Shown here one piece after another: positions 8,863 through 58,700 of a DNA stretch of 64,000 bases (within the stretch, counting starts at the first letter, position 1; each line of letters opens with the position of its first letter). This DNA comes from Marsupella aquatica (lineage: Eukaryota > Plantae > Marchantiophyta). The stretch covers positions 9,164,184 to 9,228,183 of the forward strand of contig OZ316895.1 of NCBI GenBank assembly GCA_973895155.1, in the 5' to 3' direction. A model generated the notes under the pieces. The model had not been told where the DNA came from, searched no databases, and saw only the letters and a program-made list of their open reading frames with translations. Made by a program: the position numbers and the translations under genes.

Positions 8863-8880
8863 TGGCGCCGCTGCCGGGGA
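8863..8880 (+). promoter_or_regulatory. Primer-binding site complementary to tRNA-Asp 3' end (Athila-type)
   Basis: TGGCGCCGCTGCCGGGGA, one mismatch to TGGCGCCGTTGCCGGGGA; starts 20 nt after the LTR end. Confidence 0.8.
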
Positions 8881-9097
8881 ATCCTTCTTCTTGTTTGACG
8901 ACACGAAGGAGGGGAGCTACGTCTATTGGGAGTTCAAACCTATCAACCACAATGCAACTTGCGACGGTTGATACGTGAGAAGTTTGTTGGTTACTTTGTT
9001 ATTGTACGTCAACCACAACGCATCGTGCGACGGTTGATGTTTACAAATATTGCTTTCTGAGACATTGGTGTAAGTTTGGAATGCAGGTCTCAATGGG

Positions 9098-15496: not shown

Positions 15497-15938
15497 CTGG
15501 TTGCAAAGGCCGATACCTTGTTAATAGTCAATGTAAATAAGCCATTTTTTAATTTTTAGTTAATTCCGTCATTATAGGTTGATGATGCCCCAGGTGACTT
15601 TATATTCTTTCTCTCATAATAGTTCTAAGATTTGCGGCGACCTAAGTGGGCAAATATTTTGGGACCTTGAAACTAGCCAGGACCAGCCCCATAGGACTTA
15701 CCGTTTTGCTTCAAGAGCTATTGTTGAGACCCCCATTGCAAAGTCAGGAGAGGGGGGGGTTTTTTTTTAAATAAATCCCTCCTCAGGAGGGCGAGTCCCA
15801 TTAGTGGCCGTCCGAGAGAAAGAGGGGCTGCCTCGCGAGCCCATAGGGCTGCGTGCCCGGGCGATTAATGGGGCTCCGCGAGCTGAAGGGGCTGCCTCGC
15901 GAGCCCATAGGGCTGCGTGCCCGGGCAATTAATGAGGT

Positions 15939-16189
15939 CCCGCGAGCTGGGAGGATCACGCGAGCGGGGGGGAGTTAAAGGGCCTCCCGCGAGCTGGGAG
16001 GATCACGCGAGCGGGGGGGAGTTAAAGGGCCTCCCGCGAGCTGGGAGGATCACGCGAGCGGGGGGGAGTTAAAGGGCCTCCCGCGAGCTGGGAGGATCAC
16101 GCGAGCGGGGGGGAGTTAAAGGGCCTCCCGCGAGCTGGGAGGATCACGCGAGCGGGGGGGAGTTGAAGGGCCTCCCGCGAGCCGGGAGG
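15939..16189 (+). repeat. 47-bp tandem repeat in the 3' LTR (5 full units + partial)
   Basis: Same unit as 5247-5450; the LTR offset shifts from 10692 to 10739 across the array. Confidence 0.92.
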
Positions 16190-16613
16190 AATGGCCGCGC
16201 GCCCTGCATAGGGCCGCGCGCAGGAGGACGCAAGGGTAAGGCCCGAGAAATGGGCCGGGGCGCATGGCGAAGGCGCCAGGAGTTTTTTCGGTTCTATTTT
16301 TTTTTCCTTCCTTTTTCTTTCCCTCTTCCTTTTGCACGACCCTCTCATTGCCGAAAGCAAAAACGGGGTTCTTCTCTCTCTTGCCGGAAGCTCTCTCCAG
16401 ATTCTAATTATTTTTGAAGCTCTCTCTTTCATGGTGGATTAGTGGGGCTTGCTGGCGTCATTCTTCCAGGCATTAGTGGCGGCCGCACGGAGTAGTGACG
16501 GGAAATTGAGAGAATTTAAGTGATCGGGCTACGGGGGCTGTTTCGGGCCAGGGAATTGACATTGCCACGGGTGACGGGATTGGTGATTGAGAAATTGATT
16601 TCGGGATGCATGG

Positions 16614-24691: not shown

Positions 24692-24990
24692 GAGTATGGC
24701 ACGCGTGATAGTAAACATAAAATAGGTTTTTTGGTACCAACATAAAATTTCCTATTACCAGAAAAAAGTTACTATTACTAGAAAAAATGACAATGTAAAA
24801 ATATTTCATAAAAAGTCATATTTTCCAAAAAAAATTAATTACAACATTTTTTGCTAGCTTTGGGCGCTAGCAAAAAAAACAAAAAATTCCCCCCAACAAA
24901 TAAAATTCAAAAAAATTACCACTCAATTTTGTGTTACCTATTTCTATTTCCTGTTATTGTTTGCTATTTCTTGTCGTTTTTAAATACCCC
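24692..24990 (+). mobile_element. Non-autonomous derivative (MITE) 1 of the Mutator-like family at 44166
   Basis: Ends GAGTATGGC... and ...TTGTCGTTTTTAAATACCCC; 8-bp TSD GCATCTAC/ACTTCTAC; central TAGCTTTGGGCGCTA. Confidence 0.75.
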
Positions 24991-27436: not shown

Positions 27437-29690
27437 ATGGATAACACGGTGACAATAGCAGCCCCACCACCAGTGTTAACGGTGGTAGCGCTGCCGCAGC
27501 CTGATAGAGAGGATGGGGAGATGTCCCCCTCTTCGAGTCACCCTGAGAACCAGTCTTGGGGTAGGAAGAGAAAGAAACCTTCAGCCGTATCCAGGCTGCC
27601 CTTGGCCACAGTTGCGGTGGCCAAGCTGACCATGCATCGCATGGGGGAGAATGTCCACAAGAACATCCTCCACCCCAAGCATGCATGCTACCTGAAGACC
27701 CAAGGGTTTGACCACCTCGCCTCTCTCCCTTGGAATGGAAGCAGGTACTACGGGATGGACATGACAAAGTTCAATGAAGCCTGCCAACAAACCCGAGCGC
27801 ACGGGAGAGTGACGTCTCTCAATGAGGCACGTCTTAAAATGATCTTTGGCCTACCCGAAGGAATAAATCAGGTAGAATCATGGGCTCCCCAGGGCAAGGG
27901 AGCCAAGTATCAGTCCTCTAGCTTCCCGGCCAAGGGAGCAGTGGACAACGGATTCTTGATGAGGACATGCCTCATCCCGGAGGTAGCAGAAAGACTGGAG
28001 TTCCAGCAGTACGCCCTCCACATGATGGAACCGAGGGGCGAAATATCCGTCGCCCAGGTCCTCCAAGTTGAGAACTACCGGCCTAGGAAGTGAGCATCCT
28101 TCTTTGTCAAGAAGCTCCACGAGGAGATGGAGCGGAGAAGGAAGACTTTGTACCTTGGCGGGAAGGCATACTTTGCTAGCCACATCAAAATCATCATTGA
28201 GTGGTATGCCCATTTTGACCGTCAAAGCCTCCCTCGTATCAACGAGCCCGAGCTGACCCCATCAGAGTGGATATTTGCGGCCAAAGAGAGGCAACCTCAG
28301 CTCGAGGCCCAAAGTCTGGCGATCGTGAGACCTGCTACCCCGGCCCCGCAATCAGCCGCTGCCGCCCCTCTGAATGTACTAGACGATGCAATCATCGCGA
28401 TTGAAGCCGGGCTGGCAGAGGCCGGACCCGCGCCCGAGACTGCAGTCGTAGAGGACATCCCGCCAACCTCCATGACTGGTCAAGAGAACTGCCCACCCCT
28501 AGCAAACCCAGCCCTCTCTCTCGCCATACTTCAAGGGCTAGACATCACCACTCCAACTCCCGCGCGAGCTGAGGTCTGTCCTTGCCCAAACCCGAGGGGC
28601 ATAATCTAGAAAGCCCAGAACTCTTTGCACCGGGCACGCTTTTTGAATGGGTTGCTAGGAGACTTCTCTCAACAAATTGCATGGGATACCGGGGAGTACA
28701 TGGCACGGAAGGTGGCCTACTTCTTCAACCAGCAGTTGGTTGCAGCTGTGCGGGCAGGATATGCGCAAGCCAAGGCTACATAGAGAATAGAGCGGTATCG
28801 GATTGAGTCTGCCCACCTGAAATACGAAGTTGCAGCCCAAGAGACCAAACTCCAACTACTGCGGGGGTATTTACAAACGACAAGAAACAGGAAACAGTAA
28901 CAGGAAATAGTTACTGGTAACAGGAAAGTGGGTGGTAATTTTTTTGGATTTTTTTTGGAAATTTTTTTTTGGGGGGAAATTATTATTTTTTTGTTTTGGT
29001 TTGTCATCATTATATTGCTAGCGCCCGGAGCTAACAATAGCAGCGCTTGGCGCTTGGAAAAAAACCCATGATTTTAATTATTTTGAAAAATAAGACTTTA
29101 AATGGTACATTTTTAGATCGTGTTTTTTACTGGTAACAGTAAAATTTTCCTGGTAACAGAAAACTTTTTGCTGGTACCAGTAATCCTGTTTTCCTGTTTC
29201 CTGTCTCGGTGGTGATGCCCCTATGGCAGCCTCAGGTAGCGGCCACTGAAGATTAGGTGGCCAAAGCTAGGGCCCGGGCATCCTGGCAGAGCAGACCGGA
29301 GTTGGGAAGGATGCCGAGATTGCATGGCTCCGAACCCAGATTGACGGTTTGAAGGGACAAGCCGTCATCTGGCAAAAGAATGTGGAGGAGGTCAACGCTC
29401 GGGCCCAACTGGACACAGCCAAGATAGACGTCCTAAAGACGGAAGTGGCACGGCTTCAAGGAGAAGCCTTGAAGCAAGCCCAGTTGGTGGACAAGCTGAC
29501 CAGCGACGTCCAACAACTGGAAGAGGCGTGTCAAGAAGCCACAAAAGAGACAAACGCGGCAAAGCGAGAGGAGGAATCTCTGCTGGACCAGGTCCAGCTC
29601 CTCAAGCAGGACGCCGACCGGCTCAGAAGGCAGCGGGATGGCCGCTCCAAGTCCAACTGTGGCAAATTTAGCAAGCGTGCCAGACATTAG
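27437..29690 (+). pseudogene. Decayed long ORF in the solo LTR, with C-terminal coiled coil
   Basis: ORFs 27383-28093 and 28127-28609 are in one frame separated by TGA (likely from TGG); the frame continues through TAG stops to the MITE and on to coiled-coil ORF 29349-29690. Confidence 0.65.
28864..29220 (-). mobile_element. MITE 2 of the Mutator-like family
   Basis: GGGGTATTTACAAACGACAAGAAACAGG...CCTGTCTCGGTGGTGATGCCC; degenerate 8-bp TSD CTACTGCG/CTATGGCA; palindromes at 29019 and 29041. Confidence 0.85.
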
Positions 29691-31115: not shown

Positions 31116-31449
31116 GGGTATAGCGACGGAGACAGGAAACAGGTAAACAGGAAATTCGTTTCATGTTTTTAATATGCTGTTACCAGCAAAAAATTACTAT
31201 AACTAGGAAAATTGACAATTTGAAAATGTCTCATACAAAATGATTTTTTAATTTTAATTTAACAATGCAACATTTTTGGCTAGCTTTGGGCACTACTATT
31301 ACCAGTGTTGGGCGCTAGCAAAAACAAAGTGGTCGACCGAAAAAAAACAACTTTTTTTTCTCAAAAAAATATTTCCACCCTCATTTTCCTGTTACCAGTT
31401 TTTGTTATTAACTCATGTTTCCAGTTTTGTTGTCTTTTGTAAACAACTC
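31116..31449 (+). mobile_element. MITE 3 of the Mutator-like family
   Basis: GGGTATAGCGACGGAGACAGGAAACAGG...TGTAAACAACTC; TSD GCTGAGAT/GTTGAGAT; degenerate palindromes at 31281 and 31303. Confidence 0.82.
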
Positions 31450-38364: not shown

Positions 38365-40927
38365 ACACACATTTGGGTTGTTTCCACTTACCGCACAATA
38401 TTCCAAATTTATTTCCCACCTCTTGGTCGCTGAAAAGTAGCAGAAACTTTTATTGCAAATTTCTAAAAAGCGTCGACCAGGCACTTGACCACGTCCACAA
38501 CAACCACCAGAAACCCATACAAACAATGTTAACGAACTTTCAACTTCTTGTCAAAAAGTTAACAACACTAAGGAAAAAGGACGAGAATAACATGAAAATT
38601 CCCCAATAGGGGGAGTTTTTCTAACTACAAACCTAAACAAGGCTATAAGAGACCATTCCAAGGACAAAACCAACAATAGAGTCAACCAAATCAAACACAA
38701 GATAGTCAACCATACACTAGACAATTATCTGCAAAATGCAGAATGAGTAATCATTCAGATACTAATAATTGTAGAATCCTTAAATATCCTAGGGATCTTT
38801 ATACCAAAGGTTCCTCTAAGAAAAAACATTATGGAATGATCCAAGCTAGGAAAACCCCCATGGAACTTTTATGGAATCTTATGATCTATTCCACAATCTT
38901 GCTGATCAACCAGCAAACCTTGAGACGCACAAGTTAGTCACTCAGAAGTCACTCACATTACCAACTTTAGAACATAGTGCGAGTATTATTTACAGTGACA
39001 CTACACACTCTATACTTAGAGAAAAGATGCTTTTTCAAAACATCACTCTTTCTCATACATCTATAATGACCATCCATGGTCATAGTCAAATAAAAGAAGA
39101 ATATGGACCAGTCTCCTTGAGATTACCTCAAGGCACCAAAATCTATATAGTTTTTGATATATATGCCCTTAAGGACTAGACAATATACAACATCTGAGTT
39201 ACATTATTGAGGTCTTCCTCCAAAGACAAACTTCAATCAACATAGAAGAGAGAAATTAGAATGAATTCATACGGATTTTTTTGAAGGGATTGTTGTTGGA
39301 GAAGCTTCCTAAAACAAGGAGAGCAGTTAGAAATCTTTGAGGATTGAACAAACATCTTACCTCCAAAGACGATGAAACCATCATCCAGACCAATTGAGGA
39401 CCTGTCCACAAAGAATAAGAAAGACAAAGGAGCAATTGAACACGAAAGAAAAAATAAAAATCAATTGGGATTGAATGAACTCGAGCAGATTGAAACTATG
39501 ACTTCGGACTTCGCGCATCACACAATAGATCTGAACAACCACATCCAAACTTTGAAACAAGGCAGCAAAAATGTCGGGCAAACATTGACCTAAAACAACA
39601 ATTGCAAACCCTCTTTAAAATCACTTGTGTTCATCCATTGTCACCTACATACATTTTTACAAATACAACACCTACGCCTTACCTCCCCATGAGAGCTTTG
39701 GCAAGCTATCTAAACACGTTTCAACCATCAAAAGTTGATGGCACTTCTGAAAGCACGTCAAAAGTGGCTTAACCACCACGTACAAGACTTCACGTCAATG
39801 TCATCTATAACAATGAGTTAGTTAGAATAACTTCAACTCTTATTTTGAAGTGCGGAGAGCCAATTACTGATGTTGATCTCTTGAAAACACCCTCTCCATA
39901 TTCCACTCATTAAACATCATACTTGCAACCCAATATTGCAACATGAAATTTGTGCAATACTCTGAATTAATTTCCCATCTCTTGGTTGTTGAAAAACAAC
40001 AAGAACTCATATTGCAAAATTCTAAAAAGCGCCTACCAAAAACTTTACCTATCCCACAACAACCATTAGAAACCCATACAAACACTATTAATGAACATCT
40101 TGTCAAGGCATTAACGACCCTAAAGGACAAGGAAATTCCCACAATAGAAGGAGTTTATTTAACAATAGACCTAGACAAGGTCATAGGAGACCATTCCAAG
40201 AATGAAACCAACGACGGTTTTGTGAAAGATTTGGCATGATAGGTTGGTCAAACTATGCTAAGAAAGATTATACAACATTCTCAAGGGATACCACCCAATA
40301 TTTGTCATATTCCCACGCATTCACCATGCCCATCATGCTCTAGAGGCCAACTAATAAAAAAGTCTTTCATATCCAAATCAACAATACAAATATCTTGAGT
40401 TCATTCTTTTATTTCATACAAGTTGATATCTATGGACCGTTTAACCCACCCAATGGACAATTTAGATATTTTATGGTATTTAATAGATGAATCAATCAAG
40501 TGGTTGAATGTTACCTTACTCTCCATGAAACTTAGCTATACAATGCATGTATATTAGCCCGAATGTTGTGCATTAAAGCCCAATTTCTTGAGCACCCTAT
40601 CAAGACTCTGCATATAGATAATGGAGGGTTTACATCGTGATAGCAAACAACAAAACAATTCTTGTTATGAGGAAAAAAATTCCTATTACAAGCAAAATCC
40701 AAAATCCAAAATCCAAAAATGTGCTATTAAAAATGATATTTTCCAAAATATTTTAAAATATGATGTTTTTTTGCTAGCGCCAGGTGCTACTATTACTAGC
40801 TCCGGGCGCTACCCAAAAATATTGACAAAACAAAAAATATAATTTTGCTGTTACCAATAACTTTTATTGTTTTGCTGTTTGTTGTCGCGATGCTTATACC
40901 CTAGATAATGCAAGTAAATTCACTTCT
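38365..40927 (+). pseudogene. Two decayed plus-strand Bianca-like copia gag/PR/INT fragments
   Basis: SIIYSDTTHSILREK (PR), MKFVQYSELISHLLVVEKQQELILQNSKKR (gag), DIYGPFNPPNGQFRYFM and KTLHIDN (INT), homologous to copia A/B. Confidence 0.7.
40623..40901 (-). mobile_element. MITE 4 of the Mutator-like family
   Basis: GGAGGGTTTAC...GCTTATACCC; perfect 8-bp TSD TAGATAAT; palindromes at 40775 and 40797. Confidence 0.8.
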
Positions 40928-42647: not shown

Positions 42648-44165
42648 TCAAGATCTGTCTTGAGAGTAAGTCGTCAGTAGTATCAATCGTGGTATAGCAG
42701 CAGCCTCCACAGTCATCATGCGTTGCACGCTCCGTAGTCCAATCGCCTGGCGGTGTCGGTGATGAACGGCTGGCGAAAGTGATTTGGTGAAGAGATCCGC
42801 ACAGTTGTCTGCACTTGAAATCTGCAAAATGTTGATCTCTGTTCCATGTAACTCATGGGTGTAGAAAAACTTCAGAGCTATGTGCTTCACTCGATCGTCT
42901 TTGATGAATCCTTTCGTGATCTGCTGTATACATGTTGCGTTATCCTCAAAGATGTTAGTAGGCTTCGTTAGTGTTGGAAGGCCGCATTTGGTGTTGATGT
43001 GATTTATAAAAGATTGTAACCAAACGGCTTCACGACTAGCATCATGTAGAGCTAAAATCTCTGAGTGGTTCGATGAGGTTGCTGTTAGGGTTTGTTTCAC
43101 GCCTTTCCAGGAAAAAGCGGTACCCCCTATAGTAAAAGCATATCCGGTTTGGGATTTGGCGGTGTCAGTGTCGGAAAGATATCCGACATCCGCATATCCT
43201 GTGAGTTCATGGTTTGCACCAAATGGGTAAAATAACCCGGTATCAATGGTGCCATGCAGGTACCTAAATATGTGCTTAACTCCATTCCAGTGTTTGGCTG
43301 TGGGACTGGCACTGTGCCTAGCTAGTAGGTTAACTGCAAATGCAATGTCTGGTCGGGTCTGATTTGCTAAATACATTAATGCTCATATCGCAGAAGGATA
43401 CGGAGTTTCTGGTCCTAATATTGGTTCATGTTCTTCGCGCTTGCGAAAAATGTCAGTATTGTTTTCTAATGAACGTACCACCATTGGTGATGTCAATGAG
43501 TGTGCTAGGTTCATATTGAACTATTTTAGGATCTTTTCAGTTTGTGTTGTTTGATGGAGCATCATGCCAGTAGGTAAGATCTCCAATTGTAAGCCTAAGC
43601 AAAAGTTTGTATGTCCAAGGTCTTTCATCTCAAATGTTGATTTAAGATGAATAATAGTATCTTCTGTAATGTGGGGTGTCCCAAATATGTTTAAGTCATC
43701 GACATAAATAGAAACGATGACATATTCGTCATCCACATGTTTAATAAATAAACATTGGGTAATTGCATCATGGGAAAAACCCATGGCAATCATTTCATCA
43801 GTGAATCTTTGATACCATACTCTGCCACTTTGTTTCAGGCCATATAATGCCTTCAACACGCGGATAGCTAGTCCACGGCGAGTATTCCGTACGGTTGACA
43901 CAGGGGTGTCATTGTGATGAGTTATATGTGTAGATGACACATGAGGTGTAACTTGAGATAATTGTTTTATAATCTTATGTAAATATGGAATATGCAATGT
44001 AGCGCCTTGAGCTAAAGCTCGGCGATGTTGCTCCAACTCGGGAGGTGATCGCATGTATAGACAAGTGTCTAAAGTTCCATATAGGTATGCGGTCGCAACA
44101 TCTAGTTGTCGCATCTGAAGTTTATGGAAAATGGCAAATCCGACAAGGTATCGGAATGTTGTGTT
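42648..44165 (-). pseudogene. Copia B RT/RNase H portion
   Basis: MRQLDVATAYLYG, KALYGLKQSGRVW, SIYVDDLN, TRPDIAFAVNLL, GYADVGY, FEDNATC, ADLFTKSL. Confidence 0.92.
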
Positions 44166-44884
44166 GGGTATAGCAGTGGAGACAGGAAACAGGAAACAAT
44201 TTTCCTGTTACCAGGTAATTTCTCCTGGTAACAGGAAATTGTTATTGTAAAGGTGTACTATTTGGCAAATTTTTTCAAAAATTCACGTAAGGAACAACCA
44301 CATACTTAAGCTAAAAATATTCCTACTGGCATAAGACACGACGTCAGATATAAGGGAAAAGTGTGGTCACAGTTGCTCGGAGAGGTTCCAATCTATTGTC
44401 ACTTGCTCAGATTATAGATAAAAACGGGTTGTCATTTAATTCACTGCTGTTTATATACAACAACATTTCTAAACAGTCCACTTTTAAATGCTTCATTTAG
44501 TTCATATACTTCATTAGTGTGGTTAAAAAAAGGCTAACCATAATACCCATGGAGGAATGGAGTAAGCTCAGGCGGGACCCACCACAAATCCAGTTGTGGA
44601 TTGAATTATGTTATCAGAAACATAGGGGTCTGTCAGGCAGAGTGTGAAACTAGCGCCAGGCGCTAACAAAGGATTAAGTACGTAGAATAATGGGACGATA
44701 ATAAAAGCTTATGGAACCATCCAATGGCACTAACCACAAAAAACAAAATTTTATAAATAAGTTATTGACCAGCGCCCGACGCTAACCAAAACCACATAAA
44801 AACTAAAGTAATATCCGTTGACTAAAGACAAAACAACATAGTATCCGTTATGGAATACGACAGTTAAGGATAAATCGAGTCCCT

Positions 44885-47800
44885 CTATAAACCATTTGCG
44901 TTGTGCCTCTCCAACACAAGTCTGACTTCTCCAACTGTCAAAATCGGCTGGCTACACAAGGTAGACTTCTCTACATGAAACTTGAAGACATTTATGAACA
45001 CCCAGTACAAATGTTTACAGGGCATATACGGCTTGCCGCGGGAATGACGACGGAAGAAATCCTCACAGGAACAAGTAGGGAAGATGCACATTTGGACAAA
45101 GTAAGTGTTTGGCGATCGAAGGTTCTCGTGAGTCCGTATTCTGAATTGTTTCCCATAAGCAATTCCACTAATCACATCCCACTCTCCATCTAGAGTCATA
45201 GCTTCTTTTCGAGCCGACTCCATTCGTTTACTATGAGCCACAGTTAGATTAGAGCGAGGTCTAGAGTTCCTCCCATTCCTGCTACGAAGGCGCACGTTGG
45301 GCTCCGCAAAATTGATTTTCTCTGGAAATGTGTTAACATTGATTCTCAAGTCAAATGCAAATGGTGCAGTTCGAGTTTGAGAGGGCGCAGCTGTTTGGAC
45401 CATAGAGACTCCCTGCGCTTGAAGGTACTCTATCTCGCCAGGCGAAAGTTTTGTTCCTTTCACAACTGGCAGGATGTCCGGCACAGGAGGAAGGCGTTCA
45501 ACACCACGACGCGGGCGGCTCTTGTAGCATGTGCTGTTTGGGCAGAACCATATCATTTCGGCAATGGGAGTTCCTCTAAAAATGCGATGTCCGCTGACAA
45601 CAATGCCAACAACATCGGCAGCAGAATGGAACCCTATTTCCTTGACACGATTTTGACACTCATCTCTGTCAGAATTTCCATGCAAGGTCCCATTACACTG
45701 TGGCCCTGCCCCATATTTGGCCGTCCGTCTCAAATGCCAGCTTCCTCTTGGAACGTCCATTTCCAATGGAGCTGATTCTGTCGGCAAATGTTGAACCACA
45801 GTGGGGGCACTGCGTGGTTGTTGAGATGATGTTGTTTCCCTCGTGGCTTCAAGGGTGTTCGCAAGGGAATCGCTTTCACTTGTTGAAGTGTCACTCCCGC
45901 AGAGGTCTACTACAGGATCTACTACATTGGCGGGAATGGAAGTGAACTCAGTCTTGTTGAGATTCTTCCGTTTGAATCCTCAAGTATTTGGGGTAGTGAT
46001 GAGAATGGTGTCATGCCGATGGGAGTCTTGTGGCGAGACAATCCCAGTTGCAAGTCCCTTCCTCTTAACCAATTTGGTGATAATATCTCCATTCAGAGGA
46101 GAATTCCTACCCAGATCAAAATCGGCAGAGTTGGAAAGAATCATGTTAGTGGCTTCTTCGAATAACTTGGTGAACCTGCTTGCCGAACGGAATGCCAATT
46201 CCCAGATAGTTGGCCCCTTCCCTCTATTGAGTCCTTTCCGATATGCACTGTAACCTGCAACTTGAGATATAGCCCAATTTTGATCAACTTCGCATGCTTC
46301 AAAGAGGCCCACCATTTTTTTGGTTGCCCATGCTTTCATTGAAGCGTGCCTTGACTCAGAACCTGTACAGTTTGGAATGAGGGCACCTTCTTCTGCGCTT
46401 TTGCTCTGCAATGAAGTGGATCCAGACCAACTTTAGTCAATTTGTTTAAGCAGCGCCAGGCGCTAGCAATGTATATAATATACATTAATGTAATGTTGGT
46501 ATTATCAAGTGTTCATAAGTCATGAATGTGGCAAAGTTCTCTGTACAGTTTAAAGCAGCGCCAGGCGCTAGCATTGTGTATGATGTAATAATATAATGTT
46601 GGCATCTGTACAGTTAAAAGCGGCGCCAGGTGCTAGTAAAAAACATGGCAAAGTGACTATTGTAAGCATTGATAAAACTTACCACGCGAATGAAATTCCC
46701 CCACTGACGCCATCGAACGACCCACCATGATATCCAACTCTGCAACATCATCAATTTTCCTGGAACACAGTTGCCTGCTTGCCACCATAACACAATCTCC
46801 CTAGAAACTCGGTACGCAGCAACGAATGATGGAGCATTTTGCAATTTCTCCCACAGTCTTAGATGTTCAGGTTGCCTACCCTCGAGTACTCCCTTTGTGG
46901 AATGTCGATGGAAAGACTGGTAAAAGTGGAATGCATCGGAATGTTCACGTTCAGGGTCTGGGTGACCCCCAAAAAACACATTACGAACGGCAATCCATCC
47001 AGACTGAGCATTGTCGGCCATAAAACCTTGAATGGTAACCTCATGTAACCCATTTTCCTTACAAACCTCTATCATAATTCTCCATGCCTTCTCAAAGGAC
47101 TCTGTGTCTTCAGCTTTTAGTTCGCATGTGAATATTGTACAAAGAGCTTGAAAGTTGTGATCGTAAACGTGTGCGCTAAAAGTAAACCAGTCGGTTGTCA
47201 CTCGCTTCATGACATCAAAACTCACCCAAGCCCCTTCCAGTCTTCCGCCAGGTTGCATCTGACGTAAAAGATCTACACCAGATCCATGACCCTTGACTGA
47301 CATTTTGAATATGTGGGGACGATCTACTAAACAACCCTGACCCGGAAGAAGATACCTTTGGAGAAAAGAAATATTATTTGACCTTTGCATTCGAGCTAGG
47401 AAATCTAACTCACCACGACCAGCCTGGTCCATTCGAACGCTACGACAAAGGGACGCAAATTTCTGAGGAGTAGATAGAACCATGAGAGACTTCCAAATTT
47501 CGGTTTCTTCAATATCTACGATGTCGTCAACGTTCTCGCAAAGAGCTTTCACAAGCGAACCAGTCGCCGAATTCAAAATCCCAGCCGGTTTCGCAAGAGG
47601 ATTGGCTTCGTGATTTCTTTTTATTAAGTCCTCGGCCATCTTTTCAGCACTCCTGGAGAAAACTTTTCTACTCGGATGATTATGTTCACCTATATGTACC
47701 ACGAGCCGAGACATGTGACTATAGGTTTCTGTATCAAGTAGGACCTGTGGATACATATAGAACAAGCGAGCAGGGCAAGAGTCCACACAAAAAGGAATCT

Positions 47801-48704
47801 TTTCACAGTAGTGACATACTATACCACCCTCTTCAATGAGCGAACCCACCACATGCTGGCCACTAAGCTTAGGGGTACCAGCCCACGCTTTAGAATTGCA
47901 TCTCTTCTTTCGCAAAAAATATTCACAAGACTTGTTCCTGCACTCGACGAACCCAGTACAACTGACTTTACCAAACTCCCAGTGTTTTTTTGGTTGCACG
48001 TTTGCGGTCGTCGGAAAAATCCTGGTCCAAATGTAACAATCTTTGGCACGGTCCATGTCACGAAGTCTAGATCCTTTGGACTGCATTCCCACAATGGGAG
48101 GCAATTCAAATACAATATTTCCGTTGTACTTGTTTGGCAAACAAGGAACTTGATCGTGTCGAAAGTCCCCTACCGAGATAAATCTTGACAATTCACTATG
48201 GCCTGTGGCCTTGAGTAAGGCGTCCATTGCACTCCGCCGGTAAACCTTCTGGACATCTCCAGAAGTGGCCACCGGTTCACTCTTAAGGCAACTAGAGCTT
48301 GGAGCTTTGTGCTTCTCAGGAGGATTGGGCGCAACTTCCTCATCTTCACTCTCAGATATTTCAACAACCTGGGGCGGAATGTCCTGAACAACCGATTGAA
48401 GAGGGGTAGGTCTGACATGAAGCGTGTAACAAAGTCCTACATTCATGTGCCAGAAACATATTCCGTCATCCACATCAAATGCCGCAGCTGGTTCATGTCC
48501 TCCACCCGATGACTCCTCAGGAACAATCGACAGAATGTCATTGATTCTCGAATCGAATCTCCCGCACAGATAGTTCTCGCTTACTTGCCTGTAAGTATCA
48601 AAAACCTGCACGGGAACTTTGACGACTTCCCGGGTACAAGCACGTGTAATAACAATTGAGCGCGACATTGTAGATGAAAGAAGTTTAGGCGAGAAGTAAT
48701 TCAT
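44885..48704 (-). pseudogene. MULE-type DDE transposase with GCM/WRKY-like zinc domain and C-terminal SWIM finger; 2 exons, one nonsense codon
   Basis: Exons 48704-46683 and 46405-44885 (GTAAGT...TTGCAG intron, phase 0); TGA at 45980-45982 (likely from CGA). Motifs KVSCTGFVEC..CHYC..C..HIGEHNHP; VSFDVMKR; FMADNAQSGWIAVRNVF; SDAFH; GSESRHASMK; CSCEDF..PCKH. Confidence 0.85.
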
Positions 48705-49594
48705 GGAATAGCCCAATCCCAACCGTATTCCTTGTGCTTATAACACCCCTTCAAGGACCACCGGCCGTTGAAAGAGACGTTTCAATACGACATAGAACAC
48801 GCACAACTTTGCGTCTGTTGAAATCATAAATGATACATTTGTCGTTTTTGCCCGTCAAGTGCGGGTGTCAGGAATATTTATTACATGAATACGACTAGAT
48901 AGTAGTCTATACAAGTGCTTCCATTTCATTAGCGCCGGGCGCTACCTAAAAGCCATTGGAATAACAATGACATAATTTGAAAAGTATTCTGACTAGCGCC
49001 TGGCGCTAGCATAATTACACACAAAATATTGATGCAAATACAGTAAATTTTCACTAGCGCCAGGCGCTAGTATTGATACAATAAACTTAATCTCATAATA
49101 TTAAGTAAAGTTTGGTTACTACAGGTGAAACAGGTACATTTAGGAGTTTGTTGACAATATCTATTTCTTAAAAAGAACATAAATCAAATTATTCAAATGG
49201 CTAGCGCCGGGCGCTAGCATTTGTTCACCAATAAGTTCTTCAATTTGGTAGTCTCTTATTCGTTAGCGCCCGGCGCTGGCATTGCATGTTTGTCTGCAAG
49301 GTGCTGAGACAACAATAACTTTTAACGGTAACTAATATTCAACATGATTATCACGCAAACATTTTAGCGTGGTTCACATTAATACTTATCGCAATTTCTA
49401 AGTTGTCGCTTTCCGTCACTGATAAATTAAATTGAATCTTGTCGTTTGTAATGAGTAACGTCTCTCCAACCGATTACAAAGAGGGGAATAGCGCTCATTG
49501 ATCGGATATAATACGGACGCAACTGTTAATATGGTACGGAGAACTGGTAATTAGTCGTGAGGATTCCGTTCGTACACCTTTCATCGTAAAGACG

Positions 49595-52500
49595 ATGGAT
49601 GCAATCCCCTCCTTGTCGAGGGGGTATAGTGTGGTTGGGGATCAGGATCGTGGGTATTGCGAGTCTTCTGAGTCTTCATTCTCTGGTTTAGTGTATACGC
49701 GTCGAGTAACGAGGTCCACCGCATCGCTTGTTCCAATCTCAAGTATTTCGTTTGCCAAACCAGCGAGAGAGAAGATGGAGAATCTTGACACATTTGCGAT
49801 TCAAGATGTTTCATTTTCCGAGACGGATCTTATTTCGAAACATGTCATGTCGTTTGGGAAGGATTTCAGAGGGTTTGACAAAGAGCCTCCACGAATTCCA
49901 CTATGTCGATTGGTGCATATGGAGGTTGTCCGAACTCTACAAAAAGACAGTTCTTCCATCGACAAGCTAAAAGACTCTTTCTGTAGCATGGGATACAATT
50001 CTTTGATTGGAATGAGGTTTTACGTTCAGCCTACCAATGCTGAGGGAGCGCTTCTCACCTGTACTCAAGAAATTTGTGAGAGTTGGGATCCAATATGGAC
50101 ATCTGAGAACGAGAAATTTGAGGAAGAATGTGCTGCCGACCCAGATTTTCTAGTTTTGAAGGACAGAATGTTCTCAGTTTTTGACGAGAACCATAGGCTT
50201 TACTCGTGGACTCTTGTCACTCAAGAGAGTCCCAAAAACCCAAAGTACTACCCACGTGTGCTTTGTACTGTTTTCAATGGCGACAAGGGTTTGCTGATAG
50301 AAATCGAAGCGGCTATGCACACCGTTAACCAGTAAGATACCCTTTTGTGCAAAACTCCGTGAGTCATTATGAATTGTTCATTCTTTCTAGCATAACTTTC
50401 CGAGGCCATGTTTTGCGAGCGCCCGGCGCTGCTTATATGTTCTCATTTCGTTCTTTTATTTCAGGCTAGGACAAGCAGTTGTGGAACCCTCCTGGATCCT
50501 AGATGCCGATCGAATTAAGCGGATCTTGATGCACGACCTGGAGTACTATAATAAGCTCATCGACCCTGCAAATTACAAGAAGTTTGAGCAGATCAGGGTG
50601 AAGACGCGAAAAGGATCCTGGTACACAAAGAAGATGCCTCAGGAGGCTCTTTTGTACATTCTATGTCAGGATAAGATTAAGTCGTATTCGAACCAGTTCA
50701 AGATTGACATGGAGTCCGCTGCGGCCCTCGGTACCCCTTGGTCGGTCGAGGAGGTTTCCAAAAGGCATGCCGTTATGATGAAGGAAGCAACCAAGGAATG
50801 GGCAGTTAAGACCTCGAAAATCACTCCTTTGTTGAGTCCAGAGTTTGAGGACTTTCTATCTACGTGCGTAGAGATGTATGCTGTCACGGAGAGGAATAAG
50901 CGAGAGAAGAAGCCAGATACCGTGTTGTGTACCATGGACCGGGCCAGGCTTTTTACAGCTGTTTTGGCTCTTGACGCCAAGCTACAAAGTACTTTGCTTG
51001 TAGCACATTGCAATCCGGAGCTCCGGAGACAATTCTTCCATCCGAATAGCATCAATGATGATCCAGTCAAACAGTGGTGTCACACTTGGATTACATGGAA
51101 TAATGTAGAAGGGATTGCGGTGGGGATGTTGCAATGTGCTCTACGAGAGGTCCAACAAACCATTCCCGTGAATCGCTTACAAGATTGGGCATGTGAATCA
51201 TTCGAATCTCTCATTGAAATAGTTACGAATGATTTTAGGAAATATGGTGACTCTGTCAAGGGTAAGTTTTTAATACAATGTGGCCCTCGAAGTATCCTGA
51301 CAAAGAGGATTACTCTTTGAAGAACCAGAAGCGAGCAAAACGGTATCTCTACCGTTTTTACATCCACATGGAGGCTACCAATCCTGATTACTTCTGGGCG
51401 TATCCCGCCGCCTTCCTCAAGTGGACTGTCTTACCGGAGAGTAATTCTTTAGTTGAATTGTATTCTATGTATCCTACTGAGGGAATTTTCCCAGCAAGAC
51501 CTTTGAGTGAATGGGAGAGAACCCATTGTCCATGGTACCTGGATACAAATAGAGGGGACTCGCCCTTTGATCATAGAGAAAAGGATGCTTTCCATAAGCT
51601 ATCTAAGTCCCAGATCCCAGTCAACGTTGTTTCTAACATGAAGCAGGGGCTTTCGGATGATGTGGATAAATCCACAACAGAATTGCAAACAATATGCAAG
51701 ACAACAATTGTTCATGTTGACCGAAGCAGGAAGCCTCGCGCCAAAGCAAAAGCAGATACTACGGCCCCAAGTGAATCAACAAGATTTGGGAAAAACCGTA
51801 AGTATAATTTGTTTCCTTTGGTTAGCGCCCGGCGCTGCTATGGCAGTCAATATCTGTCACATTGTTAGCGCTCGGCGCTGCTATGGGAGTCCAAATCTGT
51901 TACATTGTTAGTGCCAGGCGCTGTTATGAGAGTCAACGTTTTAGAAACTGAATTGTATTTATTACTCGGAAAGATGTATATTTAAGGCCAAGTCTTATGA
52001 TAGTTTGGCCAGCGCTGGGCGTCAGCATTGTCGTTGTCTCTTTATTGACGGATATCACGTTGACATCCATTTGAACAGGAAGAAAGTCGGACGCCGTGGT
52101 GAGCGGAGATACAAAGATAGATGCCATCCCAGAGGCTTCAGAAGCCAATACCGGAGCACCATCCGATCCAATTACTCCCACCGACAAAGGGAAGGCGATC
52201 GCGCCGGTGGATGCTACCAGTACAAGGAAGAAGAGAAAAAGGACCATTGAAGGTGGATCTTCTTCTCGAGAAAGTGCTGCTGCTGTAGGTCTTCAACGCG
52301 AAGTCGGGGACTTCAAGAGTAGACTTTCAAGGCATTGCCTTGTTGAATCTAGCATCTCAAAATTCTACGACTCAACATTTAACAAAGGGGAGAAGCCTGA
52401 CTGGGTGAATGGTGTAGAGAAGTGGGGAAAGGATCTCATGAAGTCTGGCTTTCGAGAGAAGGGCATTGTGCGTGGTGGAAAGGAGAGATCGTTTGGGGTC

Positions 52501-53438
52501 CACGCGGGTTTCATCTACCTTCCAACACGACTTAAACCATCTCTGCTAGACAGAAAAGTTCCTAAATGGAATGTCCCTGACCACACTTTGTCCACATCTT
52601 TCTTTCGTGGAATGGACCCATTTTTATCTGATGACGGAATGCTGGCCATTTTACATAATGGGGAATACGATCCGATGTCTCAGGTTATATCGGCTTATCA
52701 AGATTCAAAGAAGTTTCATTGCATCTCGTCACACAATGTTGTCATGTCAGTTCCAATGTACGTGCCGAAGACTGATCGACAGGTAAATTTCTCATCGTGA
52801 CATCTGGTTTGCCGTTAAAAAATTGTCTACAAATGCATCCATTGACATACCTTGCTTGGGTTATATTACAGATCTTCACGCTGAGGCTGGACGTCTTCTC
52901 CCGAGTGTCTGAAAAAGGGAAGGTGCCAAAATACTCGAGGTTTAGACCTCTGTCTGCCACCGAAGATCCCTCAATAACAAATTTAATTGGACTTCCCTCT
53001 CTCAAAGTTGATCCAACACCTGAGATGGAATTTGCTGGAAATGCCCGATTGTCTGTTGGATTCATGCAATCTGTGATTGAGCTCATCACTCATCCTAGGG
53101 ATATTTTCATGGATTGGACAGTGGGGTCGGACAGCTCTTTTGTAGTTGGAGACTATTCTGGGAGGTTTGTAATTGGAGTGGAGAATAGGAAAGATTTCGT
53201 TGAGACTGGTTCCAAGGTGTTCTTAGATCTACTTTCTCCAAAGGAGGTCGAAACTTTGCCACCCCCAATTCAGCCACCCGAAAAGAAAAAGTGGGACAAG
53301 CTCCGTTCTGTACTCAATTTTGACTCTGACAATGAGTCAAGTGGTGGTACAGCAGACGAAGATGAGGATGGCACACCTGAGGGGAAGGGTCAGGAACAAT
53401 CCGCTAGCCAGAGTGACAGCGATGACTCTTCCGAGTAA
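49595..53438 (+). pseudogene. ParB/Srx-like domain + beta-class N6A/N4C DNA-methyltransferase-like fold protein, ~1110 aa, 4 exons, 1-bp frameshift
   Basis: Exons 49595-50331, 50465-51797, 52079-52782, 52872-53438 with frame-preserving GT-AG introns; one T missing in the run at ~51267-51271. RIPLCRL..VRTL..FCSMGY..FSVFDENHRL (ParB-like); GFIYLPTRL..PKWN..FLSDDGMLAILH and ELITHPRDIFMDWTVGSDSS..SGRFVIGVE (MTase-like). Confidence 0.72.
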
Positions 53439-53481
53439 TGTTCTGAAACTCGTAAGCTTACTTCTCCTTTCCAGTTCCTTC

Positions 53482-53835
53482 ATGCCTTTGTGATATCCAT
53501 TCATACAATCGGTTGACGAACTTCTGTTCTCACCCAGGTCCAAATGGAATACGAGAAGACGCTTCAAACTCAGAAGAAAGGTAGCTCGTTTTGAAATTGT
53601 CACTCCGGAGAAACCATTTGTGTTACCCTCTTACGCTGAGAATGCTGCAAGAATGGAAGACAATCAGAGGACTCTTTGTTGGGAAAACAAAGGTCTCCGG
53701 CTACGAAGAGGAGTTGATAGAAAATTTGTCCGAAATCCTTATGTAGACGACGTTTGTAGGAGCAAGTATGTAGATGACGAGGCGGTCTCTACCGAGAGGT
53801 CACAGAGCTCCGAATCGGAATCGTCCGATTCTTAA
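53482..53835 (+). pseudogene. Possible small accessory ORF (~117 codons, one early TGA) in the Mutator-like element
   Basis: ATG at 53482 is in frame with 53620-53835; basic N-terminus, NPYVDD/KYVDDEA repeat, Ser/acidic tail; followed by palindromes. Confidence 0.35.
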
Positions 53836-54251
53836 AGAGTTTTTTCGGCTTACATTTTACCAGCGCCGGGCGCTGTTATCTTAATCCATTTATTTATCAT
53901 ATTAGATATGATTTGTTTACATTACATTGATAATAAAATGGATTAAATTCCTCATTTCCCTTACTAGCACCGGGCGCTCCCCAAACGTCTATTTTTCTAC
54001 TTGCAAATTTTGAATCCTCCGTCCGTTCCTTGGCCCCGCATATTTTGTCGCTACCGGAACAGTCGTCTCTTTCTCAACGGTCCTTTTTGCGTTGAACCTT
54101 TCTGTGATACGTTTTTTCTGATCTCCGAACCTAAACTCTCCATTGGGTCACTCTTGCAAGTTATTTCAAACACAACCTCTCTCGAAGTCGAGTCATTTCA
54201 ACACCACCGGTCTTGTCATTACCCTCGATTGCGTTTATCAGTGCCCACCAG

Positions 54252-54722
54252 ATGGAGAAGAAGGAGATCATGTCTTTGGAGGAGATGCTTGCCTTCTTTG
54301 CTCCTTCCAGAGTTCGACCAGACGAGAGTCACTTTAGCTCCTTCGAGTCCATTCATGGTGACACATCCAGCGAGACCTCGACCTTCCGGAATCATTTTTC
54401 TCTTCCTTATGATGAGGCAATTAGTCTTGGGGAGAGGAACTTACCTTGGATTAACGACCGGGACACTCCGCTCGCAGTGGTTGATCATTTTTTGTTTCAT
54501 TCTCTCGTTCCTGCTGATGGTATTCAGCCTATTGAGCTACGAGTACAAGAGCGACTGGGACGTGTTGACTTCCTAGATACAAATGTTCCAGACCCCGGGA
54601 ATCAGAGTCCGGAGTTTTGGCGCCCCTCGTCTTCTTATGTGCGTCTCAAGGGTCTAGGTTTCAAGCAAAACCACAGACATGCTAGGGCGGGCATCGACGA
54701 CGACTGCCAATCGCAGAGCTAA
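54252..54722 (+). CDS. Possible small accessory ORF (156 aa) of unknown function in the Mutator-like element
   Basis: MEKKEIMSLEEMLAFF... open frame lying between palindrome clusters at 53861/53965 and 54789. Confidence 0.35.
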   Translation: MEKKEIMSLEEMLAFFAPSRVRPDESHFSSFESIHGDTSSETSTFRNHFSLPYDEAISLGERNLPWINDRDTPLAVVDHFLFHSLVPADGIQPIELRVQERLGRVDFLDTNVPDPGNQSPEFWRPSSSYVRLKGLGFKQNHRHARAGIDDDCQSQS

Positions 54723-55736
54723 AGTTAATCACGACGGAGATGGTTTTAGTGACACAAGCTTCAGTGGCCATAGGCTTTCCATTTAAGCTAGCGCCGAGCG
54801 CTGCTTTTGTTCGTCTTGGACCGTGGGATTTCTTCTATGGGTGATTCTAAGTTCATGTATTTCCGGCTCCATCTTTGGCCCATTTTGGATCAGCGGCCCT
54901 GTTATGTGCGGCTCAGGCTGAGATAAAGCACATACGGGCCAGGGCAGGCTACATTTAAGATAGCTAGATTTTAGCTAGCGCCGAGCGCTACTTATGTTCA
55001 TGTTATGCCGTGGGTTGATTTGAAGATGATCTGCGGATGGTGTAATACCGGTTATATGTTTTGACCAATTTTGGAATTAAGGAATGCACTTTTGGATCGG
55101 CTCTCTTGTTCTTTCATGGTCATTCATTGATTCCTAGATTTGAGCTAGCGCCGAGCGCTGCCTATGGTCATTGTGTTCTGTGTTTAGACGTCGAGTTCTT
55201 GAGGTCTGACATTTAATGTAGCGCCCATCGCTGAAAATATTCAACGTCTGCCATTGCCTCTCTTTGTTGGAAATGCTTCAAATTGAGTTTCCTATGTTCA
55301 CTTCTCGATTGATGTGACGGACAATCTCTTCCAGCATACTAGCGCTGGGCGCTGCTAATATCCGCATGTTTTGGCAACGCCTTTTTCTAATGGTCGTTAA
55401 GTTTATTGTTCTCTTCTCGATTGACGTTACGTAGAATCTCCATCTTAGTCGTTATTTTATGAATACCTAAATTTTTGCCCTTCCCTGCCGGCATACTATC
55501 GTTGTGCAATGGCCATCACCAGTTTTTGGCAACACCTTTATTCTAATGGCCCCTACTTTCCTTGACAATTGGATGGTGGTATTGAAAACGACTGAACATG
55601 GGGTTTATTGATGGTGTTTTTTTAACGTCTTGACCAAATAATGGAGCTCAATCCCATGTTCTTTTTTCCATTTCTCCTGGTAACAGTAACTGTTTGCTGT
55701 TACTGTTTCCTGGTTCCTGTCGTTTGTAAATACCCC

Positions 55737-58700
55737 GTTGTGCTATCCATAACCGATGAGTAAGTTTCATCATAACAAATTCCCTGTTGTTGGGTAAATC
55801 CTTTCCCTACCAGACGTGCTTTGTAGCGTACAACCTGGCCTTTATCATTTCTTTTGCGGACGAAGGTCCACTTGTAGCCAATGAGGTATATGTCTTGCGG
55901 TGTTGGCTCAACTGGGCCAAAAGTGTGTCTGCTTAGTAGGGAATCTAATTCTCCGTTGATAGCTTTTTGCCATTCAAGCCAATCTGGTCTATTTTGGCAT
56001 TCTAAGATGGAGAGTGGTTCAGGTGTATCATCATTGATATGGGTTGTCACCATTAATGCAAAAGTATCATCTATTGAAGTAGTATTTCTATCCCACATAG
56101 CACCTGTGTGTGCGTAGTGGATAGAGATCTCTTCATGAGTTGTAGAGTCAGTATGATCGACATCAGGTGAAGGAGGGATAGATGAACCACGCCTTCTTGG
56201 TTGTTTATCTTTTGATCCCAAGGATCTGCCACGTTTGGCACGAGGCTGGGGTGTACTTGCTGGCTCACTTGATAATTCGATGCGAGCGGATGCTCTCGCA
56301 GCTGGAATATGTGAGCGGGTAACTTGTGATGTATCGACAAAAGCGTCGGGAAGTTCTTCCACAATCTTGTGGAGTTGCAAAATTGGCTGAACTTCTTTCT
56401 CCCCCTGATTGGTTCTAAGGTCTTGCCAAAATGGCGAATGTCTTTCCCACTCCAAAGGTGGTTGTGGGTGTTCAGGGGTTATTAATGATGGATAAACATG
56501 TTCATCAAAATGGCAATCTAGAAATCTGGATTTAAAAATGTCACCCGTTGTAGGCTCCATATATCTGATGATGGACGGTGAGTCGAATCCGATATATATC
56601 TCCAACTGTCGTTGGGGTCCCATCTTGGTTTGTTTGGGTGGAGTAATGGGGACCATTACTTGACATCCAAATGAACAAAGATGGGATAGTTCGGGTTTGA
56701 TAATGTTAGCAATTTGGTATGGGCTATAGGTATTAAAAGCTGATGGGTGGTATTGAATTAATGCATTAGCCTATAATATGGCATGTCCCCATGCTGATAC
56801 GAGGAGTTTCGACTACATTAGTAGCGGGCGTGCAATTAGCTGAAGGTGTTTAATGACAGCTTCAGCTAGTCCATTTTGGAAATGCACATGGGGTACAGGA
56901 TATTGTACGTCAATGCCAAGTGATGTACAAAAGTCGTCAAATATTTTAGATGTGAATTCTCTTGCATTGTCCACCCTTGGCCTCATTCACAATTGGAGGA
57001 CCCAAAAGGAACGTCACACTCAAAAATGACCATAGTTTATTATGCTTTAGGACATCATTTGTAAGGTGTAATGAGATGATATGCAAAATTTGATGTGCTA
57101 TACTTAATAAACATCCTGTAGGTTGGTAACATTAATTAAACTATCTAGTATTTGAGACTTTGAAGCTTTCCTTATATGTCCTTCAAAGATCGATAAAAGG
57201 ACTTGTCACGCAACGAGTCACATCATTTCAGGACTCGAAAGGACTCTAAAACTTGCATTTTAGACAATGAAATTTTACCAAGGCATGCATACTAATAGAA
57301 TAATCTTATATTTTAAAACTCAAATATTGACACACACTAAACCTTTATGTACAGGACAAAAATAATCAATAATTTTGGCTTATTTAGGGCCATCAATAAT
57401 AGGATCCCTTAAAAAAGTTAAAAACTTGATTTATCTACATGGTGAGGTAGGTTACACCATGTAAAATAGTCTTGTGAAAAAATTAGACTTAAATGTCTTG
57501 AGATAAAATCATGATGAAGCTTTTTGCATGTTACGAAAGTCATTTTTCACTAAAAAAACATGTTTTTGAGTCCTGAAAGTGGTTCCTGTGAGGTACACCC
57601 AATTGTAAATGAGGCCCCTTAGTGTCTTAATGGGGTGATCTGGGAATTGTGCCTTCACGCACAATATTTGCGCCAGGATGCGAGGCATAACCATGTTCCT
57701 CGTTGAAAGTAGGGTCACATTTGACCATTTAGTTGATGCGTCGATTAATACCATAAAGTAGCGGAAAGGTCCGCTCGGTGGGTTAATTGGCCCGCAAACG
57801 TCCGCATGTATGATTTCCAAGAATTTTGGTATCTTGGTTGGCAATTTTGATACCGTGGGCCTTGTTATTAATTTGCCGCGTGAGCATGCAGTGCATGGGG
57901 TGCTAGCTAGAATGTGGCGTATATTGGTTGGAATGCCTCTTGAATTCTTAATGATTTTTCTTAGCATGGATTGGCCGGGGTGGCCGAGGCATGCATGCCA
58001 AAGCGCGGGCAATTCGCTTGGTTGTGCATTGTTATGCAAACATTCAATTTGAGTTACATAAAACCCGCATGGGTACGAGAAAAGTGTTTCTTTAATGATT
58101 TTCCCCGTAGGGGTATTTTCAACCAAGTGGATTATTTCCTGGTCTCTTGTATCGCTTGTCTGGACGTGGAGTCCATTTGCTCGTATATCTCTAAAATTGA
58201 GGAGATTACGGGTTGCATTCAGGGCGAAGATAGCAGATTCTATGTGGATTTCTGTACCCTACGGGAGTCTAATAGAAGCTGGGCCGAAGGCCTCTTCTAT
58301 TTGGCTAGGACCATTGATAGTGGTCAGTGATCTACGTGAGGGTGTTATCTTGTAGAAAATGTGTCTATCCCGGAGGATAGTATGCGTAGTCGCACTATCT
58401 ATAATGCATGTGCTAGGGCTATTTAAGTCTGGGGTTGTGGATCTGCCCGCCACTAAATGTGCCTCGGGTTGCACAGGTGTATCTGGAAAGTCTTGAAATA
58501 GGTCGTTGGACTCCATAAACGACCCGTGGGTCTCACGGGGTGGTGCCCTAGAGGTTTGTCCATCCTTGAGGGACTATTGATATAGGTCTCTAAGGTGTTG
58601 CTGGATTCTGCAGTTTCTTGCTAGGTGGTTATCATGCCGCATTCATGGCATTTTGGGCGTTCCCGTTGTTATCGGGATTGTGACCAATCATTTCTTCGAT

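Follow-up and report, generated by a model that had tools for sequence, protein, structure and literature searches.

The locus described here raises the question of what reads a short palindrome that is scattered through the non-coding DNA of a transposon in the liverwort Marsupella aquatica. The DNA analyzed, called the window below, is a 64-kb stretch of contig OZ316895.1 (positions 9,164,184 to 9,228,183), and it contains a complete DNA transposon of 11,571 bp (44166..55736), best fitting the Mutator-like class, whose two divergent genes encode a transposase and a cargo protein with a ParB-fold front, a helical middle, and a methyltransferase-like back end. The answer that we lean toward, and regard as rather probable, is that the palindromes let the element recognize itself: its ParB-fold cargo protein would read them, with an effect like that of VANC.

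The core of the palindrome, AGCGCCNGGCGCT, has 11 perfect matches in the window, all inside 44652-53874 (shuffle mean 0.00). When up to 2 mismatches are allowed, there are 27 matches, 21 of them within the element (shuffle mean 0.78, maximum 4), and addition of a 3-mismatch site at 52011 brings the number of copies in the element to 22 (span 44652-55353); a 3-mismatch match at 48294, in a transposase exon, was left out of this count. Motif scanning places two copies in the left arm (44652..44783; at 44652 and 44771), three in the transposase intron (46452..46634; at 46452, 46557, and 46622), five, all perfect, between the two divergent genes (48931..49277), four in cargo intron 2 (51824..52023; at 51824, 51867, 51910, and 52011), two between two small open reading frames (ORFs) (53862..53978), and five imperfect ones in the right arm (54790..55353), and an exact-match scan places one in cargo intron 1 (50418..50430). 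None of the 22 copies overlaps an exon or ORF; with a non-coding share of 3,784 of the 11,570 bp of the element, the chance of this arrangement is 0.327^22 = 2e-11 if the sites are taken as independent. A first-pass annotation of this DNA had reported ∼22 copies, distributed over the same seven groups and always outside exons, and both observations are borne out by these scans. It had also not seen the motif in the surrounding retroelements except in related miniature inverted-repeat transposable elements (MITEs). Four of the six outside matches at ≤2 mismatches fall in two MITEs, and the remaining two (42742 and 44001) have 2 mismatches each and are at chance level.

The fuller consensus of the palindrome is approximately (C)TAGCGCCNGGCGCT(A/G), a site of 13-17 bp that is CG-rich and stands in AT-rich flanks (flank GC 0.32). 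Its central base is free (A in 6 copies, C in 6, G in 9, and T in 1). The flanks fall into 19 groups at 55% ungapped identity, of which BLAST merges a few more, and because this leaves ∼16 independent contexts, the set is not one tandem array. Across the copies, 15 of 264 core positions have changed, and 12 of these 15 changes are C>T or G>A, an excess that is the pattern expected of methylcytosine decay. Of the sites that had been seen packed into the motif, GCGC is enriched around the element (4.25 per kb at 44-56 kb versus 1.57 and 1.25 per kb in the comparison regions), whereas CCNGG is not (3.33 per kb at 44-56 kb versus 3.34 leftward).

The cargo gene lies on the plus strand, and its first exon (49451..50331) contains the ParB/sulfiredoxin-fold domain (∼49823-50331). 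A full HMMER search recovered 187 relatives of this exon at E≤0.001; a word-index search among longer proteins, with the same exon as query, had recovered none. Ten of the relatives were looked up, and among them seven belong to the liverwort Riccia sorocarpa and two to the fern Adiantum nelumboides. The front domain was modeled with a pLDDT of 94.9, and its best structural matches, at middling scores, are KorB, ParB, PadC, and sulfiredoxin. The top Foldseek rows were KorB and ParB (none at E≤0.001), all seven VIA rows at Z≥5 were sulfiredoxin, ParB-type, or related proteins (best Z 6.6, rmsd 3.6, 89 aligned), and a search of the ESM Atlas gave DUF3723 as the first match at 0.96 and a ParB_N cluster at 0.93. 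These comparisons of the predicted structure show that the N-terminal domain of the cargo protein has a ParB/sulfiredoxin fold. Across 47 sequences, a DGNHR signature is nearly invariant in the place of GERRxRA; the window copy has DENHR. The same exon has an early stop (49499-49501) in the window copy, and at position 50187 other copies, seen in contigs from public sequencing runs, differ from it. Exon 2 (50465..51797, plus strand) encodes the middle domain, whose model (exon 2 up to residue 266, pTM 0.52) is all-helical and matches only generic helical structures; the window copy has a frameshift near 51266. No meaningful match was found when a full-length Riccia homologue was compared with PDB sequences. 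Pattern scans for cargo relatives in viral contigs and for the ParB pattern in prokaryotic genomes found none, but these scans are insensitive and have no bearing on origin.

We also analyzed ParB-bearing loci from a metagenome scan, in which 80 of 153 confirmed loci were kept and grouped into 48 clusters; removal of ten clusters of <2.5 kb, addition of locus L063, and removal of seven with <1.7 kb upstream gave a set of 32 loci. The palindrome scan required G or C at 3 of 7 positions per arm, AT repeats having swamped laxer scans. A GC-containing palindrome cluster was present in the 2.5 kb ahead of the ParB exon in 12 of 32 loci compared with 0 of 28 distal windows in the same loci; some of these distal windows may fall inside elements, since no element ends were found in 14 long related loci. 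The palindromes themselves differ: L014 has TTCGGCGCCGAA, L035 has GGTGGCCGTTAACGGCCACC, L006 has GAGGTGCCG-n4-CGGCACCTC (downstream of the ParB exon too), L022 and L059 share CCCAAGCT-n2-AGCTTGGG, L069 and L077 share GGAGCTT-n2-AAGCTCC, and further loci have others. When seven motifs were counted across 12 sequences, the table came out nearly diagonal, with at most 3 matches in any off-diagonal cell. The window palindrome has 0 matches at ≤2 mismatches in the 80 related loci (711,804 bp). On a ParB tree there are three motif classes of four loci each, and every class forms one side of a branch, with five of the 12 labels assigned after a neighbor's motif was tried; the neighbors L063, L013, and L015 are without the clade motif. 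As to the co-variation of motif and protein between families, which had been put forward as a check on the ParB/parS idea, motif classes track ParB clades, but co-inheritance alone would suffice to produce the pattern. A related transposase lies divergently upstream of ParB in 6 of the 80 loci, which argues that the two-gene layout is old. In L063 (1870-2058), remnants of transposase and ParB lie <200 bp apart without a palindrome, apparently after internal deletion of the promoter region. L006 (1-1550), L014 (527-1346), and L035 (113-352) have, ahead of the palindrome cluster and on the same strand, ORFs with acidic tails that are unrelated to the window transposase; in these three loci the ParB cargo may be coupled to a different transposase or accessory gene.

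If the cargo protein reads the palindromes, a dimer would bind the two-fold site through some DNA-binding part, and the many sites would give high local occupancy along the element. Such occupancy could protect the two divergent promoters from silencing by host cytosine methylation and could keep the element ends accessible to transposition, in the way that VANC acts on VANDAL elements. Protein and site would diverge in step, so that each family has a private address. We favor the cargo protein as reader because of the two-fold symmetry of the site, its spread over introns and promoter, the presence of a separate motif at the termini, and the pairing elsewhere of ParB genes with inverted repeats under an unrelated transposase.

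Several results weigh against this assignment. No helix-turn-helix (HTH) or known DNA-binding fold was recognized in the structure comparison of the modeled part of the middle domain. The Fisher probability for the upstream clusters (1.6e-4) overstates the evidence because the loci are related to each other. Upstream regions are cluster-free at the threshold in 20 of the 32 loci, which may reflect decay or true absence, as many loci are decayed; 3 of 20 control windows elsewhere in the 64-kb window pass the same threshold; and several of the relatives' palindromes are embedded in longer tandem units. Clade-specific motifs would fit either protein of the element, because transposase and cargo are inherited together, and the retention of the motif in gene-less MITEs is equally compatible with a transposase site. 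Finally, a phage ParB N-domain is described that activates a DNA-modifying enzyme although it has no obvious domain for DNA binding and apparently does not use CTP (PMC13229309), and therefore the ParB fold alone does not prove a clamp.

The same considerations bear on how far the comparison with bacterial partition can be taken. The cargo resembles ParB/parS and KorB systems in its ParB/sulfiredoxin N-terminal fold and in the many cis dyad-symmetric sites of similar length, but it differs from ParB/parS in its DGNHR signature, the lack of a recognized HTH, the long helical middle, and the fused methyltransferase-like domain, and no match to a ParA/ATPase family was obtained in a scan of 10 element ORFs. 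An arginine patch, GERRxRA, defines chromosomal ParB in the published account (PMC7333895); because GERRxRA was not found and no HTH was recognized in the modeled part, the cargo is, by these tests, not a ParB/parS member. What survives of the ParB/parS-like cis-site reading given in the first-pass annotation is the fold, the relatives' private clusters, and the VANC-like layout; membership in ParB/parS is not supported. A bolder proposal, which we consider improbable at present, is that in a transposon lineage of seed-free land plants the cargo acts in the nucleus as a true clamp of the ParB type, gated by nucleotide, which loads at private palindromes and slides along the element. Its methyltransferase fold would have been repurposed to shield or reset cytosines, and at least eight different palindromes would represent a diversifying protein-site code.

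The principal competitor of the cargo protein is the transposase, which is encoded on the minus strand by two exons. Exon 1 (46683..48668) contains a Cys/His-rich putative DNA-binding domain and two conserved Asp residues (FDVM and MADNA), and exon 2 (44885..46405) contains a probable catalytic Glu (SESRH), an in-frame stop (45980-45982), and a C-terminal SWIM finger, to which the Pfam match is weak (E=0.025; E=4.6 for the whole ORF). Five relatives are 46-70% identical, the two Asp residues are kept in all five aligned transposase sequences that reach them, and the Cys/His pattern is conserved. Pfam scans gave no match to a Mutator-like element (MULE) transposase family, the N terminus had no GCM match in Pfam or among PDB sequences, and a transposase profile retrieved nothing meaningful from PDB sequences. 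The GCM label that had been attached to the transposase is accordingly not confirmed by Pfam. A pattern scan found no transposase relatives in viral contigs, but the scan is insensitive and has no bearing on origin.

We call the transposase Mutator-like because of its domain order, for which a WRKY-GCM1 zinc-finger N terminus is described in MULE transposases (PMC1702500), and because of the 8-bp target-site duplication, MULEs being described as having duplications of 8-11 bp and as including forms without terminal inverted repeats (TIRs) (PMC6446971). A duplication of 8 bp is found in the element, in MITE B, and in MITE C. At the element, the left copy is GTTGTGTT (44158..44165, plus strand) and the right copy is GTTGTGCT (55737..55744, plus strand), 7 of 8 bases being identical, both found by sequence inspection. 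The element begins with GGGTATAG and ends with AAATACCCC, and its terminal repeats are short imperfect matches; no long TIRs are present at its ends. Zisupton, hAT, and CACTA were also weighed against the 8-bp duplication and the SWIM finger, and Mutator was the best fit to the motif order. The Mutator-like assignment, made by inspection with no profile confirming it, thus fits best among the classes considered.

Four related MITEs of ∼280-360 bp lie in the window, each with the same ends as the element and with 1-2 central palindromes, which are 22 bp apart wherever two exist. Comparison with the element identified MITE A (28864..29220, minus strand; two palindromes), MITE B (31116..31449, plus strand; two decayed palindromes), MITE C (40623..40901, minus strand; two palindromes and a perfect duplication, TAGATAAT), and MITE D (24692..24990, plus strand; a single decayed palindrome). 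Apart from the palindrome, the internal sequence of the MITEs has diverged. A second repeat motif, TGTTACCAG/CTGGTAACA with 20-bp spacing, is found near the left end of the element (44199..44241), again near the right end (55671-55702; 55677), and at the MITE ends; it is distinct from the palindrome and is a candidate transposase site. The palindromes begin ∼380-490 bp inward from the element ends.

The palindromes could instead be sites for the zinc-finger domain of the transposase, serving autoregulation, local demethylation, and end pairing, with the cargo a passenger or acting via the transposase. This is the main rival because the motif is kept in MITEs (4 of 4) and because Mutator transposases are described as binding cognate and non-autonomous copies and causing hypomethylation (10.64898/2026.08.24.746577; MURA, PMC10398659); with a related transposase divergently upstream in 6 of the 80 loci, the transposase shares the clade pattern as well. 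We nevertheless judge it unlikely. The AtMu1 transposase is reported to peak at TIRs (10.64898/2026.08.24.746577), whereas the palindromes occupy introns and the promoter, and the termini of the element already have the separate TGTTACCAG/CTGGTAACA repeat. In addition, red-algal ParB genes are described with inverted repeats under an unrelated transposase (10.1101/2025.02.11.637652), and L006, L014, and L035 have clear palindromes without a match to the window transposase, although these contigs are short.

A second alternative takes the reader out of the element altogether, so that the palindromes would attract a transcription or chromatin factor of the host, or would themselves work as CG-rich promoter elements that are free of methylation. 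The perfect state of all five promoter copies and the contrast of a CG-rich motif with AT-rich flanks are in line with such a role. The palindrome differs per family, however, which would be unlikely under a conserved host factor, and the arm copies and the copies in gene-less MITEs are left unexplained; we therefore give this possibility little credence.

The first-pass annotation had suggested that the motif contains CCNGG targets of an N4-methylcytosine (4mC) methylase, a question on which the last two cargo exons bear. The methyltransferase-like domain begins in exon 3 (52079..52782, plus strand), which has YLPTR at the motif IV position, and continues in exon 4 (52872..53438, plus strand), which contains the motif I region of N6/N4 DNA methyltransferases and an acidic tail. 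Exon 4 matches Pfam N6_N4_Mtase at E=0.0013, under the curated cut-off, and DpnA structures at E=0.007, and motif IV precedes motif I, as in beta-class N4-cytosine (N4C) and N6-adenine (N6A) enzymes. The catalytic motif of N4C/N6A DNA methyltransferases has the general form (D/N/S)PP(Y/F/W). A PP-aromatic motif IV was found in 0 of 14 sequences (12 homologous proteins, L005, and the window; 2 further proteins without a match to the search pattern are outside the 14). The forms seen in its place are D[LM]P[TS]G, DVPFG, DFPIG, DIPEN, and the YLPTR of the window. UniRef labels four Riccia cargo proteins (P0157, P0159, P0160, and P0164) "Trimethylguanosine synthase," probably a mislabel of this domain.

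On the corresponding alternative, the palindromes are methylation targets at whose internal CCNGG the cargo writes 4mC or N6-methyladenine, with the ParB domain as activator only. The N6_N4_Mtase-like domain with its motif order, the conservation of the motif IV Asp and Pro in Riccia, Adiantum, and L005, the use of a 4mC enzyme in liverworts (10.1101/2021.02.12.428880), and the phage precedent of a ParB that activates a DNA-modifying enzyme (PMC13229309) would all accommodate this. The catalytic motif argues otherwise, as the Marchantia enzyme DN4MT1 has TSPPY according to its description (10.1101/2021.02.12.428880) where the window has YLPTR. The link to CCNGG and N4C methylation fails on this motif together with the lack of CCNGG enrichment and the relatives' palindromes, which are mostly without CCNGG. 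The central base of the palindrome is also free, and we regard this alternative as very improbable. The domain probably serves as a base-binding module, atypical or non-catalytic, rather than as a CCNGG methylase.

The least credible alternative, that the palindrome is functionless and has spread by slippage or local duplication in non-coding DNA of a young element, would account for the copies within duplicated units, for the windows elsewhere that reach the cluster threshold (3 of 20), and for decay of the motif by C>T change, but it is hard to square with ∼16-19 unrelated flank contexts over seven non-coding regions with just 15 of 264 core positions changed, with retention of the motif in MITEs whose other internal sequence has diverged, and with the equivalent arrangement of different sequences in other clades.

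Two small ORFs follow the cargo gene on the plus strand. The first (53494..53835) is weakly like the C terminus of the Riccia homologue P0025 (E=0.013) and sits after the cargo stop behind a GT-AG intron-like stretch, so that it is possibly a last, or alternative last, cargo exon. The second (54135..54722; 195 codons) has no assignable family, its one match being DUF5030 at E=0.003, and is a possible third accessory gene.

The element inserted into a Copia-type reverse-transcriptase region, with RVT_2 matches on either flank, and its alignment with a second Copia-type copy, elsewhere in the window, continues across the insertion point. Contigs from three of four public runs join across the element at its ends, indicating an empty site. 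All four runs cover 30 of 30 element bins, and thousands of contigs match the element at 80-100% identity, so there are many diverged copies of it. The copy in the window is broken by the stop in the transposase and by the stop and frameshift in the cargo gene. The element has an observed/expected CG ratio of 0.76, compared with 0.66-0.81 for its flanks and 0.45 for the older Copia-type copy; it is young or under-methylated, two causes that are inseparable here.

Among other features of the window, MITE D is inserted in the second Copia-type copy, within a few hundred bases of the point that corresponds to the main insertion site. At 4766-16331 there is an element whose identical direct repeats, spaced by 10,692 bp, contain tandem units of 47 and 64 bp as well as a GGCTCGCGAGCC palindrome; by sequence, it looks like a very young long terminal repeat retroelement. 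Four ATCGGAC-type inverted repeats inside ∼300 bp (2873-3182) are possibly another MITE. A search of Rfam gave just two weak matches, far under threshold, which were dismissed as chance.

Among known systems, VANC provides a functional parallel to the self-recognition that we propose for the cargo protein. VANC motifs are described as accumulating in non-coding VANDAL DNA, often via tandem repeats, and as differing between families (PMC5735166, PMC10398659). In both cases a Mutator-like element has an accessory gene and a short motif, specific to the family, that has built up in its non-coding DNA. The motifs given for VANC are 8-9 bp and non-palindromic (YAGTATTAY and AGTTGTCC), and demethylation has been shown for VANC, whereas the window cargo has a ParB fold and a methyltransferase-like domain; a Pfam scan of the cargo exons, in which no direct VANC comparison was made, matched no VANC family. 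By analogy, the most plausible role of the feature is self-recognition of the VANC type, here based on a ParB fold.

The protein architecture has its nearest counterparts in algae. In a preprint on the red alga Bostrychia (Petroll et al., 10.1101/2025.02.11.637652), Plavaka (EnSpm/CACTA) elements are described as encoding PAG3, a ParB-like protein with a 2-oxoglutarate (2OG) oxygenase domain, beside adjacent inverted-repeat arrays, and self-binding is proposed. Compared by description, PAG3 and the window cargo are both accessory proteins with an N-terminal ParB-like and a DNA-modifying type of domain, with inverted repeats beside the gene. The PAG3 systems have the 2OG oxygenase as partner, a separate methylase gene (PAG2), an EnSpm transposase, and tandem repeat arrays next to PAG3; unlike PAG3, the window cargo is ParB fused to a methyltransferase-like domain in a Mutator-like element with land-plant relatives and with the palindrome in every non-coding region. 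The brown-algal element Sola1-1_Ec32 of Ectocarpus encodes a 1,104-aa cargo with ParB-like and N4/N6 methyltransferase domains, proposed to bind and modify its own element (PMC12477816). As described, it resembles the window cargo in both domains and in its position on the strand opposite the transposase, and it differs in its Sola transposase and 21.5-kb length; the description mentions no target motif. Marchantia DN4MT1 likewise places a prokaryote-type amino-methyltransferase fold in a seed-free plant lineage (10.1101/2021.02.12.428880), but it is described there as a host gene product that methylates genic CG, whereas the window family is transposon cargo without the PP-aromatic motif. A different ParB-HTH methylase is known from chlorophytes and chytrids (Iyer et al. 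2016, PMC4738411).

The idea of a self-recognizing ParB in a eukaryotic transposon is therefore less new than the first-pass annotation supposed. The self-binding ParB idea is already in print for algal transposons, and a literature search found no description of the land-plant element or its palindrome, although one may exist in Iyer et al. 2011 or in the Bostrychia supplements. The present element is of value for its land-plant lineage and for the several palindromes that are specific to families; a system of this kind has already been proposed for algal transposons.

Self-recognition and protection of transposons against host methylation have been shown in only a few Arabidopsis and maize systems, and for algal ParB-type accessory proteins self-protection has been proposed without a defined site. 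The window element supplies a sharply defined site and brings the ParB module into Mutator-like elements that have relatives in a liverwort and a fern. Because several natural protein-palindrome pairs differ in sequence, the self-recognition idea can be tested by cross-binding. If it is true, a bacterial partition fold would have been reused as a sequence-specific chromatin regulator in plants.

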